Assembly (NCBI GenBank): GCA_951406725.2
Contig: OX597834.1
Coordinates: 34,720,001 to 34,784,000 of the forward strand
Length of the DNA stretch: 64,000 bases
Direction of reading: 5' to 3'
DNA from: Octopus vulgaris
Taxonomy: Eukaryota
In this document: piece by piece, positions 23,808-37,235 of the stretch
Layout of the letters: each line of letters opens with the position of its first letter
Position numbering within the stretch: position 1 is the first letter of the stretch
Notes under the pieces: generated by a model
Database searches by the model: none
Told to the model about the DNA's origin: nothing
The model's input: only the letters and a program-made list of their open reading frames with translations
Made by a program: the position numbers and the translations under genes

Positions 23808-24894
23808 GTAAGTTTTCAATATAATTTTTAACGAGTCCAATGCTAAATTTCTGTTTAAGTTGTTACGTCGTCAATGACAACAAAGCCCTTCCTTCACGTG
23901 TCAGCCCGGAAGTCTTTACGCTGTCGCTCGACCCTTTAAAAATAGACGTTAAATCCCCTCAGATCACATTCGTTATCGTCTTGAAACAGGATGGAAACTT
24001 TCGGCAGTTTAATCTCAGATCGATATTTCTTGACCATTTTTCTGCATTGATCCCTTCACCACTTCACCGTTTCAATTTCCCCTACCGCCGTAGAAGAAAA
24101 AATGTCTTGTATACGACTCAAATTATTTTTGTATCTTTTAATCTCTCATTTGCTTCAGTGTTTGGATTGCGGCCATGCTGGAACATCGCAAATTGACCCC
24201 ACTACTTATTTTCAAACTGTGGTATTTCTTCTATCGTTTTCTTTTGCCCAACTGCAAAGTTCCAGGGACGTAAACAAACCGGCAACGGTTGTTAAGCTGT
24301 TGGGGCTTAACACGGATCTTGTCCATTTCGTGGCCAGCAACACACACACACATCTATATGAGTATTTGTGTTTATTCCCCAAACTGTTCAACAGCCGGTG
24401 TTGGTTTGTGTACATCCATATAGCACAGCAGTTCAGCAAAAACAAAAAAAAAAAACGATAGAATAAGTAGTGATCTTAAAAGCATAGGTACTGGGGTCAA
24501 TTTGTTTGACTAAACCCCTTATACATACATACATTGTACGTATGTATGTATTTTCACACATATCTGTTCTATTCATACGTGTGTGTCAAAATAACATCTC
24601 TTGTTATCTCTTCCTTCCTCTTTTTTCTGTCCCTTTCATTTCTTCCCTCTGAGAGTCTCCTTTGCTCTAATTTCCATTGTTACAGACTACCCCTTATGCA
24701 AATAGATGAAGATTAATTAAGACTGAATTACTGAGACAAAGAGTAAAATGTAATCGATATAGATTACATATTTGTTCAGTTGTCAATGATTTTCTTAAAA
24801 ATAACTAAAATCTATATTTCTGTCGTTTTTCAGATGGTTGTTACAGTCCCTGGGTAAAACAACTCAAGAATTCATAACTGTGAAATATTAACAA

Positions 24895-26613
24895 ATGGCT
24901 GCTATAAACTCCAGTGACATTTCTCTGTCAGATATTGTCCGAATTGTCTCATCGCTGTCTGACATCTGTGCAAGCTCCATAGGTCCCATGTGTGAGAAGA
25001 CTCTTTTCACAACTTCTACTGGATCGGTACAGTTTGTCACTAATGGCATTGACATTCTTAATGCTTTGCAGTTTTCTCATCCAGTCGCAAAGTTTGTGGT
25101 AAATTCTCTTCAGCATGTACATTCTGTGACGGGAGATGGCAGCAAATTATTTATTCTTTATATCACTGAATTAACACGGTCTATTGAGCTGCGAGTGAAC
25201 TCTTCTTCTCAGACAAATGGCACTCAGTTCAGAGAAAATATGCGTAGAATATCTCAGGGCTTGAGAAACTTTAAGCGTCTAATAATGGAATTTGAGTTCA
25301 GAAATCGTTTATCTTTTCTCAGTTCTATCAATTCTTCTGACTTTTTACTAAGCTGTTGCCATCTGAAGCAAGTTTGTAAATCAGTTTTATTGAGTTCTTT
25401 GTCTGACAAAGAATCGGTTTATTTCTCATCTCTACTCATTGATTTTCTTAGTTATGGTGTCGAATGTACCGATTCTTTACATCAAGTCATTGACTTTACT
25501 ATTAAACACTTTGATGTATTAATTCACAAAGATATTGGTCATTGTTACAGTTCTTCAAAGGTTCTACCTGGAATACTCATACCATGTGAAGGACCATTAT
25601 CCCTTGATCTATCATCTTCCAAAGAGGAAATTGTATCAGTCATTTTGCAGAATTTCTTAACATCTGATGAAGATGCAGAAACAACCGAAGCCACGTTTAA
25701 AATAACAGAGTCTTATGAGTTCAGTTCCTTAGTGGCCTTCCAATATCACCAATGTGAGGCCTTCATCAAGCAGTGTACGCTAAACAATGTAAAACTAGTT
25801 TGCTGTTGTCATGAGATTCCAAAATTTGCTGAAACTTTGTTCCAGCAACATGGCATTTATACTATTTCTTACTTACCTGAAGAATTCTGTGAGTTTTTTC
25901 AAACTGTAACCAAAAAGCAACCTCTTTCATGTATTAGAGACTCTCTCTGTGATAGTTCACTAGTTTCATTTGGTTTACATAAAAGGATTGTCATAAATGG
26001 TTCCACGTATCTTCAAATGACGCTGCTATCTTGCCCACTTTTGGTAAATGCCTCTTCCAGTCTTATACTCACAGCACCAACGTTAGGCATGGTTCACAGC
26101 TTATCCCAACAGATCTTTAAATGTTTGAAATCTCTTAGAATGTGCTTTGAAACATTTCAAATTCTGCCATTTGATCATGAAAATATTACTAATGAAAACC
26201 TTACTGTAACTGCGCCAACCCTGTCTTCAAATATCTTTACCATTCCTGCAATGACTTTCCAAACCAAAATGTTGCAATATAGTCAGGAAAGAACTTTTAA
26301 GAATATAGCTCACAATAATGATGATGATGATGATGGTGATATTCCATGGGAAATTCTTCATGATACATTTAGAAGTGTCTGCAGGAAAGTTTGTACATCA
26401 CAAAAATTTTGTCCAATTCAAATTCAGAATTGCTTACCTGAGCCTGATGAAATAAAAATGAATAACAATAATTCTGAGGAATTCTACAAAGAAGGAAGCT
26501 GGTTACCACTATACACAGAGTTTTATATCCTGCATTCTTCACTCCAAGTGGTGATTCAGCTTTTAAATATGGACCAAATAGTCAAAGTGAAAAGCATTAA
26601 AAAAAATGTTTGA
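24895..26613 (+). CDS. BBS10: Bardet-Biedl syndrome 10 protein (chaperonin-like), 572 aa
   Basis: N-terminus SSIGPMCEKTLFTTSTGSVQFVTNGIDILNALQFSHPVAKFVV...TGDGSKLFILYI aligns by eye with human BBS10 ([43 protein letters not shown]...TGDGAKTFIIFL); CCT-like C-terminal LLNMDQIV. Confidence 0.88.
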   Translation: MAAINSSDISLSDIVRIVSSLSDICASSIGPMCEKTLFTTSTGSVQFVTNGIDILNALQFSHPVAKFVVNSLQHVHSVTGDGSKLFILYITELTRSIELRVNSSSQTNGTQFRENMRRISQGLRNFKRLIMEFEFRNRLSFLSSINSSDFLLSCCHLKQVCKSVLLSSLSDKESVYFSSLLIDFLSYGVECTDSLHQVIDFTIKHFDVLIHKDIGHCYSSSKVLPGILIPCEGPLSLDLSSSKEEIVSVILQNFLTSDEDAETTEATFKITESYEFSSLVAFQYHQCEAFIKQCTLNNVKLVCCCHEIPKFAETLFQQHGIYTISYLPEEFCEFFQTVTKKQPLSCIRDSLCDSSLVSFGLHKRIVINGSTYLQMTLLSCPLLVNASSSLILTAPTLGMVHSLSQQIFKCLKSLRMCFETFQILPFDHENITNENLTVTAPTLSSNIFTIPAMTFQTKMLQYSQERTFKNIAHNNDDDDDGDIPWEILHDTFRSVCRKVCTSQKFCPIQIQNCLPEPDEIKMNNNNSEEFYKEGSWLPLYTEFYILHSSLQVVIQLLNMDQIVKVKSIKKNV

Positions 26614-31465: not shown

Positions 31466-31483
31466 ATATAATATATACCTTAC

Positions 31484-31585
31484 CTTGTTTTGATCAGTCC
31501 TAGCTGCACAGCTTCAGTCACTTCCTTCAAAACACAGGTTATCTCTTCTTGGGAAGAGTAAGCAATACAGATGTTTAAAATGTTC
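31484..31585 (-). CDS. DHDDS: DHDDS coding exon 4
   Basis: RNILNICIAYSSQEEITCVLKEVTEAVQLGLIKT (human FLNVCFAYTSRHEI). Confidence 0.95.
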
Positions 31586-33060
31586 CTGCAAAATTCAATG
31601 TTAGATTCTTAGTTACAATTATTTACAAATAGTTCAAAGGTACTAGAACAATAAATTTAGGTGGTTATTTTGGACCATGTGATGAGAGGAAGGGGTCAAT
31701 GTTCTCAAAGATGAATGTATGAGGTAATATTTAGGGGAATAATCTAGCAGAATAAATTTTCGTTGTGTATTTATATAGGTGCAGGAGTGGGTGTGTAATT
31801 AGTAGCTTGCTTACCAACCACATGGTTCCGGGTTCAGTTCCACTGCGTGGCACCTTTGGCTAGTGTCTTCTTCTATAGCCTCAGACTGACCAAAGCCTTG
31901 TGAGTGGATTTAGTGGGCAGAAACGTGTGTGTGTGTGTGCTTGTTCCCCCAACATCGCTTGACAACTGATGCTGGTGTGTTTACGTCCCCTGTAACCTAG
32001 CAGTTCGACAAAAGAAACCAACAGAAAAAAGTACTAGGCTTACAATATATATATGACGGGTTTCTTTCAGTTCCCATCTACCAAATCCACTCAAAAGGCA
32101 GTGGTTGGCCGAAGGCTATAGTAGGAGTCACACGCCCAATGTGCCATGCAGTGAGACTGAACCTAGAACCATGTGGTTGGGAAGCAAGCGTTTTACCACA
32201 CAGCCACGCCTACCTCTATGTTCCAAAAGTTTTCAATGCCCTACAAAACTTTTAGTGGGTACACTTGCACCCTTTGTTCTCGAGCCTATGAATAACAAAC
32301 CATTGAAGGAACTCTGTATAGTGGTTGATCTGCTAGAAACAGCAGTCGAATTCTATTAAATCACCTCCTAACGTCTTTAAAAAGAAAGAGCATATAGAAA
32401 AGTAGATAGGATAGTCATGGCTAGAACACCTTCAATCAAATTTGTGATGAACCAGGGCTGATTTGGAGTAACGCTGCGATGGACTGGCGTCCCGTCCAGC
32501 TGGGGAACACATATACCATTGAAACCGGACCCATGAGCCTGGCTTGGCTTTGAAAGGGCGCATTAATTAATTAATTTATTTATTATATATATGTAATAAT
32601 TCAATCATATAATATGAACTTTATCGAATTTTGTTACATGGGAAATTCCCTGATCCGTGGTGCAAATAATGCTAGGAGATGCTGCCCTTAGTATCGGGCC
32701 CGATGCAAAGAACCGAACAACAGCAAAAGTAGTGATAATGGTGGGGGTAGCAGTAGTAAGAATAACAGCAGAGGTGAGAAGTCGGCAAGCAACCATCGCT
32801 TATTTCCCTTCATTACACACAAACAAAGCAGGACCAGCCTCTCTTATCTCCCTTCATCTTCCACAAGAATGGTAAGATATCGGGGCAAGTGCGACAAGAG
32901 ACGACGAAGCACCAACCCTCCCTACCACGCTTCTGTCGAACTCTACGAATAATCTATTCTCACAGGCGTTTAAAAAATTACCACCCATTCACAATTAGGT
33001 GGAACAATCGACAATTAGAACAACAGCAGAATTATCTTCGGACGTTTATACAGTAACATT

Positions 33061-33118
33061 ATGCAAATAAGATGCAACTGTAATTTTATACACACCGTAT
33101 ACTCTAAGTATATAAATA
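33061..33118 (+). promoter_or_regulatory. Putative Pol III type-3 promoter elements (octamer, PSE-like, TATA)
   Basis: ATGCAAAT 33061-33068; ACACCGTATACTCTAAGT resembles the U6 PSE; TATATAAATA 33109-33118, starting 31 nt upstream of G33140. Confidence 0.5.
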
Positions 33119-33139
33119 AGTTGCAGATTAGTAATTATT

Positions 33140-33323
33140 GAGGTCCGCGGTTACAGGTATTGATAACGTTCATTCTCCCTTTTCTCATTAGGAAGTGCGC
33201 GACTCAGTCTATCACCTTTATACAGTCTAGGCCTGTCGATCTTGCTAAGTTGATCCCGAATACCTCCATTCGGTCTCTTTAACTTAAACCAATGACCCTG
33301 TAGCGAACTTGACCTTACTTTTT
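33140..33323 (+). ncRNA. Candidate Y RNA-like Pol III transcript
   Basis: 5' GAGGUC-C-G pairs with 3' UUGACCUU (bulged C); upper stem GUUACAGG/CCUGUAGC and UAUUG/CAAUG; T5 terminator at 33319-33323; TATA at -31. Confidence 0.6.
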
Positions 33324-33404
33324 GTTTTTAAAAAATTTTTTTTTTCAGAGGAAATCGCTTCAAATTTTCGGTTTTGCGCATTCGTTCAAATTCTTCAGAT
33401 TATT

Positions 33405-33818
33405 GGATCTTTTCGGTTTGAACGGCAGTTTTTTTTAAAAATAATTTCCACGTAACTAAACACTTTTAAACTTCGTATACTGGTAGAATGTGTTTATAAA
33501 ACATCTTTTTCTCTTGGCTTTATTGAGAAAATTCTATGGTTTGTAAGATATTTGTTGTTGTTTTTTTCTGCAATTTCAACCAATCAATGACGTCTATTGA
33601 GGTAAAAAAACAAAAATATTCTGTGCCGTATGAATATGTCCCTCGTTTAAGAAACAGATTGGGTTTATTTACATTCGTGAAGAAAAAAAAGATACCCTTC
33701 CCCCCACCTCTAACCCTAAAACAGATTGAAATGCAATAGATCGATACTAGGGTCATAATTATGGGTGACAATTTCATGACACCGCTAGAAAAAACTGCCG
33801 TTCAAACCGAAAAGATCC
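33405..33818. mobile_element. Merlin-like non-autonomous DNA transposon (MITE)
   Basis: Perfect 30-bp TIR GGATCTTTTCGGTTTGAACGGCAGTTTTTT; 8-bp TSD AGATTATT (33397-33404 and 33819-33826). Confidence 0.85.
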
Positions 33819-36300
33819 AGATTATTTCTCATCTGTAGTATATGAAACCAGATAGTGATGGCGGGGGGGGGGGGGGATACGAGGAGGCCATCATCACTAT
33901 CGACAAAGGAGGACTTTAACGCGGTCTTGAAATCGTCAGAAAAACTATTCTGAGGAAATGAAATAGCAGCCAATTGACCTTAAATTTGCTTCACGATGAT
34001 GATGATGGTACTGTATGCCACAAACCAACGCCACCACCCATCATCACTAACAACAAAGTTGTCACTTTACGTAGTTTTAAAATAAGCCTTATAAACCTAT
34101 TTTTCATGACATGAAATAGCAGCCAATTAACCTCAGATTCGCTTCGACGGTGATACTGTGAACTACCACCAACACCACCTCCTTCTTCTTCTCCTCCTCT
34201 ATTAACAAAGAGGCCCCTTCACGCGGTCCTAAATTAGTTTTGAAACTATTTTGATCATATGAAATTGCTTTAATTCGCCTCACCGTCTTAAAAAAATACA
34301 TAGAACAACCTAACTATACAAAGAGACACCATGACCATGGTTGGATTGCATTTGATGGTAGGGCTGTTGACTCAGGGCTGACCTGGGGTTGCACAACAGC
34401 AGACGACATTGAACCAATGAAGCAGCTTCTTCGGATTCGCTCAATCTGCTAGAAATAGCAGCGAAATTTCCCTCAAATCGCATTCTAACGTCTTTAGAAA
34501 AAGATAGTGAATAAAATGTAATCCTGGCGAATACACTATATCCTTCATCTTTTACTCGTTTTACTTATTGGACTGCGGCCATGCTGCAGCATCATCTTGA
34601 AGGGTATTAGTTGAACAAATCGACTCCAGTACTTATGTAAATTCTGGCAATGATTCTGTCGGTTTTATGCTGCTAACCTACCTACGAGGACGTGAACAAA
34701 CCAGCAACGGTCGTCAAGCGGTGTGTGTGTGTGAAACAAACACAAACGCACACACATTATTTGTATCGTTTACCAAATTCTATCATAAGGCGTTGGCCAA
34801 CCCAGGACTATAGTAGTAGACATTTAGCCAAATTGCCGCGCGGTGGGGCTGAACCCGAAACCATGTGGTTGGGAAGCAAGCTTCTTAACCACATAGCCAT
34901 GTCTGTGCATATATCTAAAAGAAAATGTGATACACTGGTCGCGAATGGAACTTTTGATCATAGGTTGGCCGGATCAGGATGAGACCAAAGCGTCTGAACA
35001 ACAACAACGGTAATGAAAACCAAGGAAGTCTCTTCGTAGTCATTCGACTGCCTGCTAGAAGTAGCAGTCAAATCTCTCTCAAATCGTAGTCTTTTGTCTT
35101 AGAAAAGAAGGATAGGTCGGATAATAAGTTACTGAGTTAATCATGTCGAAGAAAAATAAAGAACCACTATGCTGTCTCATCATATGTTAAATTAGCAGTC
35201 AAATTTCACTCAGTTCACACAATACTGTGTGTTGTTTTTTAATGATACGTTAGATAGTTTTAGAAATTACGAAGTATGAATTTATTGTTACGGCATACTT
35301 GCATAGATAAATATTCTGCTTTAAAATATAAATCCAAAACAGAAGAATATATAATCATGAGCGAATAAAGAAAAATAGGACATTAATTCGACACTAAGTG
35401 CGTCAATCGACCGCACACTTAGGGATCCATATAAGATTTTATTAAAATTTATGTGCAATAATTTGTTTATACTTCTGCAATGCACAAAATACATTAATTT
35501 TTTTTATACAGTTTCCAATAATATTTAATTATTAAAAAATACAGTAATTGTTTTGTAAAGAATAAAATGTTTTGAATGACACAACAATGCACTATAATAC
35601 AAACGATGAAATATAATAACTTTTATAATTTAATCATCCTTAGTCTGTTGTGATATTTCGGAATAAAAATTCCTTCTTCAGATATCCCTAGAAATTGATG
35701 GAGTAATTTTTTTTTTTTAATGTATCGAATGACTATGAATAAATAGGAGTCAAAGGGGTTCATAAGCAGCAAAAAAGGGTTGAGAATCACTGACCTAGCA
35801 TAGAGCTGCTTCCCTCTCAAATGTTGTTCCTCTCACCCGCCGGGGATCTGAAGCTTGCAAGCCATGCAACAATCTCACTTTGTATAGTGCTGGTGCTATT
35901 TAAAAAGCACTCAATACAATCTGTAAAGTGGTTTACATTAGAACAGGAATCCAGCTTCAAAAACCATGTCAAAGCAGACACTGGAACACAATGTTGTCCT
36001 CTGACCAGTCAGATCCTGTCAACCCATACCAACATGGGTTGGATGCTTGAATGATTCGATGGATGGCATGGCTGTGTGGTAGGAGGCTTGCTTCCCAGCC
36101 ACGTGGTTCCAGGTTCAGTACTGCTGTGTGGCACCATGGGTAGGTGCCTTCTGCTGCAGCCTCAGGCTGGCCAAAACCTTGTGAGTGGATTTGATGGACG
36201 GATGCTGAAAGAAGCTTGTCATATATATGTATCTATATCATCATCATTTAACGTCCGTTTTCTGTGCTAGCACGGGTTGGACTTTATATATATGTATGTG

Positions 36301-36332
<32 letters not shown>

Positions 36333-36960
36333 AACTTAAGGCTATGTGAGGTTAGATTAGGTACCATGTGGGTGCAAAGGAAACATCTTAATAAAACAGC
36401 CATGCCTGTACTCTAGGTCTGAACACAGAGACAAAATAAACATCACCTGTAAAGACACTTGTTTAAGGTTCTAGTCAGTGGGACTGAACCTGAAACTATG
36501 TGGGTGCAAGACAAAACCTCTTAACCACACAACTGTGGTTAAGAGGAATTGTCATAACCACAGCTTTGTCTGCACAAACACAGAATAATAATATTTAATT
36601 GTAGGTAGGGACACTATATTTCGTTATCTAACTATAATATTCCACCAGGTATATCAAAGGCTTATAAGTGATGTGTTCATGGATGTGGATGATTAAAGGG
36701 TTGGATGTGATACTGAAGAAAGAGCAATTACTCCTGAAATATGTATATACATGCATTACCTATGTCTTTCTTTGGTCGCATTGTTTACACAGATGTATTT
36801 GTATGCAAAATATCGTAACTTTCAGTGTTGGCTCTAACTTTTACAGAAAACCTGTAGAGATAACTTCAACAAGGGAATAATAAATGTTCTCTCTGTCATA
36901 ACAGAGTGACTGACAGAATTATGGCATCAATTGTTGAGTAGTGATTGAGATATTGCTTAC

Positions 36961-37077
36961 CTGGAATTGTTTTTGAAAATTGTGACAATTTCAGCAATAT
37001 TCTCACGGATATCTTTTGGAAGCAAACTCAGATTACCAAACACTCGGATACACACTTCATTCTTCAATAATTCCTCT
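36961..37077 (-). CDS. DHDDS: DHDDS coding exon 3
   Basis: EELLKNEVCIRVFGNLSLLPKDIRENIAEIVTIFKNNS (human GVCIRVLGDLHLLPLD). Confidence 0.95.
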
Positions 37078-37235
37078 CTGAAATTAAATTAATAAACATT
37101 ATTTACATTTGACAGATATTTGTCCTCATCTTATTTGTTTTTAACACAATGTTTTGGCTGATATACCCTCTAGCCTTCATCAGGTGTCTTGGGGAAATTT
37201 CGAACCTGGGTTCTCATTCCTAAGGTATTTTTCAA

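Follow-up and report, generated by a model that had tools for sequence, protein, structure and literature searches.

The genome of Octopus vulgaris very probably holds, antisense in an intron of a DHDDS-type cis-prenyltransferase gene, an independent gene with a U6-type promoter and an oligo-T end for a Pol III Y RNA of 184 nt with predicted binding to Ro60. The gene lies in a window of 64,000 nt (assembly GCA_951406725.2, contig OX597834.1, positions 34,720,001 to 34,784,000 of the forward strand), the whole of which is called the window here. An earlier note on this window had proposed a Y RNA-like gene. Our analyses support this reading, and none of the refutation tests that we ran refuted it. 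The element is a candidate cephalopod partner of the RNA quality-control protein Ro60, and likely so because it combines a U6-type promoter, a conserved body, copies that are restricted to this body and a Y RNA-like shape. Its features are collected in Table 1.

Table 1. Features of the candidate Y RNA gene and of its host intron, in window positions.
Feature	Positions	Strand	Basis or remark
Host intron, DHDDS-type cis-prenyltransferase gene	31609..36956	-	approximate; bounded by the adjacent open frames
Upstream promoter element, octamer-containing, PSE-like	33060..33079	+	at -80; common to U6 genes
TATA box	33109..33118	+	at -31; U6 genes have TATA at -30
Candidate Y RNA body	33140..33323	+	about 184 nt including the U tail; body-only copies, cross-species conservation
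Ro60-binding helix (predicted), 5' strand, with bulged C33146	33140..33149	+	derived base at C33148, where older copies have A or G
Upper stem, 5' strand, then UAUU	33150..33162	+	pair probabilities; without GUG-CAC
Pyrimidine-rich loop tract including the internal T4	33169..33190	+	19/22 pyrimidines
Internal stem-loop with CCGAAU/AUUCGG hairpin	33246..33286	+	pair probabilities 0.81-1.0
3' strand: upper stem, GAA bulge (33305-07), C33308, lower stem	33290..33316	+	C33308 is T in older copies
Pol III terminator, T5-G-T5	33319..33329	+	sequence; 3' ends of copies

Promoter and terminator

The candidate gene has a TATGCWAATNAG-type element at -80 and a TATA box at -31, the latter being the TATA-type TATATAAATA that the earlier note had correctly placed at 33109. 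Both have counterparts in the U6 genes of the same genome, where 7 of 29 loci carry TATGCWAATNAG at -77 to -79 together with a TATA box at -30 (30 U6 loci were fetched; L028 was left out, and the 29 correctly oriented ones were counted). The proposed comparison with U6 genes thus returned a -80 element common to both, and it altered the reading of two upstream motifs. The octamer ATGCAAAT is indeed present at 33061, but its role had been misassigned: since the same motif and the TATA box stand at matching distances in U6 genes, the octamer is the U6-shared -80 element. The "PSE-like string" at 33085-33108 is absent from U6 genes and shows 4 substitutions in organism C, a related organism, and on these grounds we rejected it as a promoter element. 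The -80 element and the TATA box show no substitution among the differences listed for organisms C and E; these 30 nt without change are, on their own, weakly significant (p 0.06).

The promoter motif is not proof by itself, because motif plus TATA has 147 matches genome-wide, many of them in repeats, versus 12 with a control pattern. The promoter with GGTCC at the start site is found only twice in 2.8 Gb, and the second occurrence is AT-rich, without a Y-like body or 3' arm. Neither this search nor the one with RF00019 found another Y-like gene in the genome. At the other end of the element, T5-G-T5 at 33319-29 is present as described before, as is the internal T4 at 33180-83. Judged by its sequence, the gene would hence have both the external Pol III promoter and the oligo-T terminator of a Y RNA gene.

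The same motifs were met in other settings. The ATGCAAAT core also occurs at -42 to -44 in 17 of 20 U1 loci. In a U1 cluster at G000:C18:48.97-49.21 Mb (L118-L135) ATGCAAAT lies about 35 nt nearer to the start than in U6 genes, and two further U1 loci are without it. The ATGCAAAT core is absent within 250 nt of the best 7SK locus, which has a TATA box. The promoter motif with TATA often heads dispersed or tandem repeats (L052, L069, L071, L073, L075, L076), one of which, L071, gave no Rfam match, and a hammerhead-like CTGATGA...AAA core stands near the expected start in 3 of the 27 distinct promoter-motif loci that were read. At least seven U6 genes form a tandem array at G000:C1:139.42-139.43 Mb (L029-L033, L058, L064), with a variant 5' stem-loop and a promoter spacer of their own; two single U6 genes of other types adjoin this array.

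Copies elsewhere in the genome

The element had been called non-repetitive, which proved wrong. With promoter, body and terminator as the query, we found at least 29 other matches at no fewer than 26 loci, and all of them are restricted to the RNA body. The element is not a high-copy repeat, and the test on this point did not refute the gene. A pattern of 20 nt from the 3' arm, with 1 mismatch allowed, hit five places, all at loci that had been found previously. Two loci, L008 and L009, duplicate L019 and L015, and the copy tables omit them. L010 and L015 each consist of two pieces in back-to-back orientation.

The ends of these copies coincide with the predicted ends of the RNA. A 5' arm is present at 18 loci. 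In six of these the copy opens precisely at 33140, and in three more at most 2 bases away; the remaining ones are shortened at the 5' end, and none of the 18 runs into the upstream flank. Of nine copies with a 3' arm, four stop in the T run and none passes it, and copies read through the internal T4. In the chimeric pseudogene L005 (G000:C24:43467051-43467308), a complete U6 (92 bits) is fused directly, in the same sense, to G33140 and so precedes the initial 150 nt of the element; this fused U6 was the sole match above a gathering score when 10 copy loci were scanned with Rfam. Two papers describe such chimeras in mammals, for U6 and for Y RNA, and trace them to RNA ligation or template switching (PMC11838501, PMC6789731). 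Three of the five T-tailed copies have a downstream partner in common with U6 and vault RNA copies. The search for target-site duplications around L002, L005 and L019 gave just chance-level matches of 7-8 nt. Many vault pseudogenes are fused to the same repeat tails.

One copy is permuted. L019 (G000:C11:20324828-20325017) is 190 nt long and runs from 33210 to the 3' end and then from 33140 to 33217, with 8 nt of terminal redundancy. Its template could have been a circular RNA, a head-to-tail dimer or an end-to-end template jump, so that the permuted copy may record a circular form of the RNA. From the copies we infer that an abundant, discrete and U-tailed RNA was once made from G33140, and that it would have been reverse-transcribed by the same retro-machinery as U6 and vault RNA.

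Assembled contigs contain the stretch in 20 of 24 sequencing-run rows, and no RNA run is listed among its holders. The contigs of three runs that we guessed to be RNA cover 33078-33329 only, and those of a fourth run extend upstream; the guessed-RNA contigs open 33-62 nt before the predicted start, contigs of organism C span the whole stretch, and we do not take coverage as evidence of a transcript. In the contigs of run X21 of organism E the promoter is covered and the body is not, a gap that proves nothing.

Conservation across species

When the element is compared with organism C, the body is kept and the flanks have diverged; the conservation test set in the earlier note did not refute the gene. 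There is 1 substitution in the 184 nt of the body against 33 in 367 nt upstream (Fisher p 1.7e-5, differences listed). The contig behind this comparison spans 32773-33395 and has 46 differences in all, 9 of them outside those listed. An independent contig of the same organism (33107-33327) has 7 differences, which are the 6 listed upstream plus 33265. The two differences in the body, the substitution at 33265 and a one-base indel at 33262, both fall in the hairpin loop of the internal stem-loop (Table 1), and the large loop of the RNA is as conserved as its stem. By this comparison, strong purifying selection acts on the RNA body across species. In the helix discussed below organism C is derived as well, and it reads GGUCCGC.

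Fold and the predicted Ro60 site

Folding of 33140-33323 pairs the two ends in a terminal helix of 6 bp (33140-45/33311-16), above which stands an upper stem of 8 bp; in both, the pair probabilities are 0.88-1.0. An AUUG/CAAU extension of the upper stem has a pair probability of about 0.7, and internal hairpins are predicted as well. The end pairing claimed earlier is therefore recovered in both terminal helices. The motifs on which that claim was built are also where they had been placed: GAGGTC at 33140-45, GACCTT at 33311-16 and C33146; GTTACAGG at 33150-57 and CCTGTAGC at 33297-304; ATTGAT at 33159; CCGAAT at 33256 and ATTCGG at 33268. In the predicted fold the lower and upper stems flank an internal loop, as they do in Y RNAs. 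The large loop has 139 nt, of which 61% are pyrimidines, and includes the pyrimidine tract of Table 1. For the whole element the folding energy is no better than chance would give: z is -1.14, and 26 of 200 shuffled sequences do equally well. A descriptor of the site, drawn up after the site was known, has 1 match in the window versus 0 in 200 shuffles.

According to passages of a review, the Ro60 site is a short helix in which one C is bulged, with a bulge of 3 nt on the opposite side (PMC4726728). Other sources, again in passages, add that Ro60 contacts the GGUCCGA motif (PMC4201824) and that Y RNAs have a C-G pair and a G-U wobble beside the bulge and UAUU above the stem (PMC8973356). In the corresponding register the element has GGUC/GACC, the bulged C33146, G33147-U33310, a C33148.U33309 mismatch, G33149-C33308 and, as the 3-nt bulge opposite, GAA at 33305-07. 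The single bulged C of the earlier note thus holds in part: the sequence permits this homology-based register, but in the predicted fold a 4x6 internal loop takes its place, and the bulged register receives a probability of about 0.01. This probability becomes 0.79 with A at 33148, and 0.14 with all three old alleles.

The copies offer a view of this helix in the past. Positions 33149/33308 are G/C in the window, L002 and L004, and A/T in L010, L015 and L019, with no discordant pair among the loci that have both arms. L006 has T at 33308, and its 5' arm must be shifted by one base to give A at 33149; the 3' arm of L007 was left out of the covariation count, a deletion joint overlapping it. One-armed copies have, at 33149, A in L012 and L013 and G in six; at 33308 they have T in L016 and C in L003 and L017, the last of these being 75% identical and missing its 5' arm. 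The shift from A-U to G-C is a single compensatory event in the master gene, and few copies record it. The pair concerned is unpredicted by the energy model and predicted by Y RNA homology, and its covariation supports the bulged register.

The neighbouring position 33148 has also changed. It is A in L012, L015, L019 and L006 (in L006 depending on the register), G in L010 and L013, and C in the present gene. L012 reads the canonical GGUCCGA, then AG. The present gene and organism C read GGUCCGC where Y RNAs have GGUCCGA, and this leaves a C.U mismatch inside the motif contacted by Ro60. The caveat raised earlier on this point is right in that the present gene lacks the A, but the A found at 33148 in older copies softens it. 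The bulged C33146 and the G-U pair are unchanged.

Ro60 and other RNA families

The same genome has a Ro60 ortholog with H187, the protein partner that a Y RNA calls for. Its TROVE exon matches Xenopus laevis Ro60 (1YVP) with E 1.5e-45 and keeps D181, R184 and H187, the last described as essential in Ro60 in passages of PMC4030889. Relative to X. laevis this exon shows K170R, Q173S, R174K and N175A. Exons for vWA_Ro60 lie 65 kb downstream of the TROVE exon on the same strand; a motif search of the first 35 kb found no middle exons. A second gene with a TROVE domain occurs at G000:C3:24.65-24.67 Mb (L081, L082), and from its sequence likeness we take it to be TEP1-like.

An Rfam scan of the element, which included the Y_RNA, ceY and sbRNA models, found no family at E<=10, and a search of the whole genome with RF00019 gave no match. 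Membership in some other Rfam family had been named as a refutation of the gene; no other family matches, and this test did not refute it. The models of earlier work also missed bacterial Y RNAs, as passages of PMC4201824 report.

We rejected 7SK, given that the element has no RF00100 match and no BLAST similarity to the 7SK loci, which are elsewhere (three genome loci score above the cut-off). One 7SK candidate, L099 (G000:C11:99736743-99737023), has 55.5 bits and a TATA box and is without the -80 element; L100-L102 look like copies. We also rejected vault RNA, a separate family of about 90 nt that has no BLAST similarity to the element: 20 of 29 genome matches to RF00006 are above the cut-off, and all are elsewhere. 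No box B was found in the element within 1 mismatch, and it has no tRNA boxes. The vault RNA genes L104, L108 and L112 (G000:C8) comprise at least three sequence types, some with TATA-like sequence upstream.

Comparison with known Y RNAs

The element resembles vertebrate Y RNAs (hY1, hY3, hY4, hY5; RF00019; 1YVP) in having a predicted Pol III gene with an external promoter and an oligo-T end, paired RNA ends, a GGUC helix that may be drawn with a single bulged C and the G-U pair, the 3-nt bulge opposite in that register, UAUU above the stem and a pyrimidine-rich loop, as well as retro-pseudogenes and chimeras with other RNAs. It differs from them in its present GGUCCGC, in the lack of GUG-CAC, in a lower helix of only 6 bp, and in being a single gene with no cluster found and no RF00019 score. 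Its length sets it apart too, as the earlier note had cautioned: the element, as delimited by the ends of its copies, has 184 nt versus 83-112 nt in human Y RNAs, and exceeds the known Y RNAs of animals by about 70 nt. The human range comes from passages of PMC4030889, where the loops are the variable part.

Like CeY of C. elegans and BfY of the lancelet, the element has an upper stem without similarity to that of vertebrate Y RNAs. Unlike these two it has a much longer, structured loop and no Rfam match, the Rfam scan being the sole sequence comparison here. It has the predicted Pol III stem-bulge architecture in common with nematode and insect sbRNAs, but it is a single gene and not a family, and we rejected an sbRNA since it has neither the A/GUG-CAC/U motif in the upper stem nor the UUAUC motif in the loop. 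With vault RNA it shares the predicted character of an end-paired Pol III RNA, GGTTAC near the 5' end and similar pseudogene chimeras; unlike vault RNA, the partner of the TROVE protein TEP1, it has no box A/B and is twice as long. For vertebrate Y RNAs and sbRNAs to act in replication, GUG-CAC and UUAUC are required, and CeY binds Ro60 and has no role in DNA replication, according to passages of PMC4726728. Because GUG-CAC and UUAUC are absent, the octopus RNA is probably of the CeY type, i.e. a Ro60 partner, and not of the replication type of vertebrates and sbRNAs.

Alternative explanations and proposed mechanism

Some of these observations could be accommodated by a conserved Pol III RNA, derived from or similar to a Y RNA, that no longer binds Ro60, or that binds a TROVE protein of the TEP1 type, and acts via its loop. 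Such an RNA might well have exchanged the GGUCCGA of older copies for GGUCCGC, have a bulged register that is thermodynamically weak at present and keep its whole loop as conserved as the stem in organism C. The second TROVE gene, TEP1-like by sequence likeness, and the GGTTAC that the 5' arm has in common with the vault RNAs of the genome point the same way. Yet the pair next to the changed base was kept by a compensatory change, with the bulged C and the G-U pair unaltered, Ro60 with H187 is present and no other Y-like gene was found. Moreover, the vault RNAs form their own family of about 90 nt without BLAST similarity, and the element has no box B. We consider this explanation improbable.

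Copies at 26 or more loci, one of them a circularly permuted 190-nt copy (L019), and repeat families headed by the same promoter motif would also suit the master copy of a small non-autonomous retroelement, a SINE- or retrozyme-like circle with an snRNA-type promoter and with end pairing used for copying. But the copy number, itself a lower bound, is low and resembles that of the U6 and vault pseudogenes. The copies also show damage, and the tails to which they are joined recur on copies of U6 and vault RNA. Since there is no hammerhead core and there are no tRNA boxes, we rejected a retrozyme or SINE master; the strong purifying selection on the body across species also speaks against it, and we give this idea very little credence. 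It is harder still to believe, to the point of being barely conceivable, that the element acts in cis as a conserved part of the DHDDS pre-mRNA or DNA, or folds merely by chance, and has no transcript of its own. Copies with the exact ends predicted on the + strand, one of them in the same sense behind U6, and a U6-type promoter and a terminator correctly spaced on that strand tell against it, even if the fold energy is not above that of shuffles, Rfam gives no match and the organism C contigs span the whole stretch and show no discrete transcript.

If the element is a Y RNA gene, as we favour, SNAPc and TBP would direct Pol III to start at G33140 and to stop in the T run. By analogy with known Y RNA biology, La would bind the U tail, and Ro60 would bind and stabilise the weak bulged helix formed by both ends. 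Other proteins might be tethered by the 139-nt loop, a scaffold that carries the pyrimidine tract and hairpins, and this loop might gate the access of misfolded RNAs to Ro60. One might speculate further that no other lophotrochozoan Y RNA has had real support before and that no animal Y RNA is longer; that its pseudogenes record a recent rewrite of the helix, from GGUCCGAA to GGUCCGCG plus the compensatory partner, that co-evolved with the changes in the RNA-binding helix of Ro60; and that the 139-nt loop is an extra domain tethering Ro60 to a cephalopod-specific partner. Taken jointly these propositions are possible, but we would not expect all of them to hold.

Significance for the Y RNA repertoire of animals

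Ro60 is widespread in animals, yet the listed Y RNAs cover few groups. Passages of reviews (including PMC4726728) list them for vertebrates, nematodes, Anopheles, Bombyx and Branchiostoma, and PMC4030889 relays the proposal that every organism bearing Ro60 has a Y RNA. The earlier note knew of no described cephalopod Y RNA. Within the openly accessible papers searched, we found no such description and no validated mollusc Y RNA either. For the golden mussel, an automated annotation table gives 9,316 "Y_RNA" genes, with no validation in the passages concerned (PMC10541798). The octopus gene is missed completely by standard models, which would explain the gap in known Y RNAs. Going by its sequence, it would supply a known class with a well-supported member that had been missing, from a new phylum, of unusual length and with a traceable change in the protein-contact motif.

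The gene provides a seed and a recipe for finding the Y RNAs of molluscs and annelids: a U6-type promoter, an end-paired helix with a bulged C and pseudogenes restricted to the body. It also makes two questions testable, namely whether the ancestral Y RNA of animals served solely as a Ro60 partner and had no replication motif, and how far the motif contacted by Ro60 can drift.

Genomic surroundings of the gene

The antisense location in a DHDDS intron that the earlier note had proposed is borne out, because exon frames of a cis-prenyltransferase flank the element on both sides on the - strand. Three of the four exon frames scanned with Pfam on that strand match PF01255. The element itself lies between host frames 36957-37088 and 31483-31608, both assigned by sequence likeness, with no Pfam hit. 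As the element has its own promoter on the other strand, its placement in this intron is probably incidental. A very high-copy repeat starts about 75 nt downstream of the terminator (window 33400-33800). Elsewhere in the window, a single open frame of 573 aa on the + strand (24892-26610) matches the TCP-1/cpn60 chaperonins (E 2.4e-25); it presumably resembles the single-exon BBS10/MKKS type.
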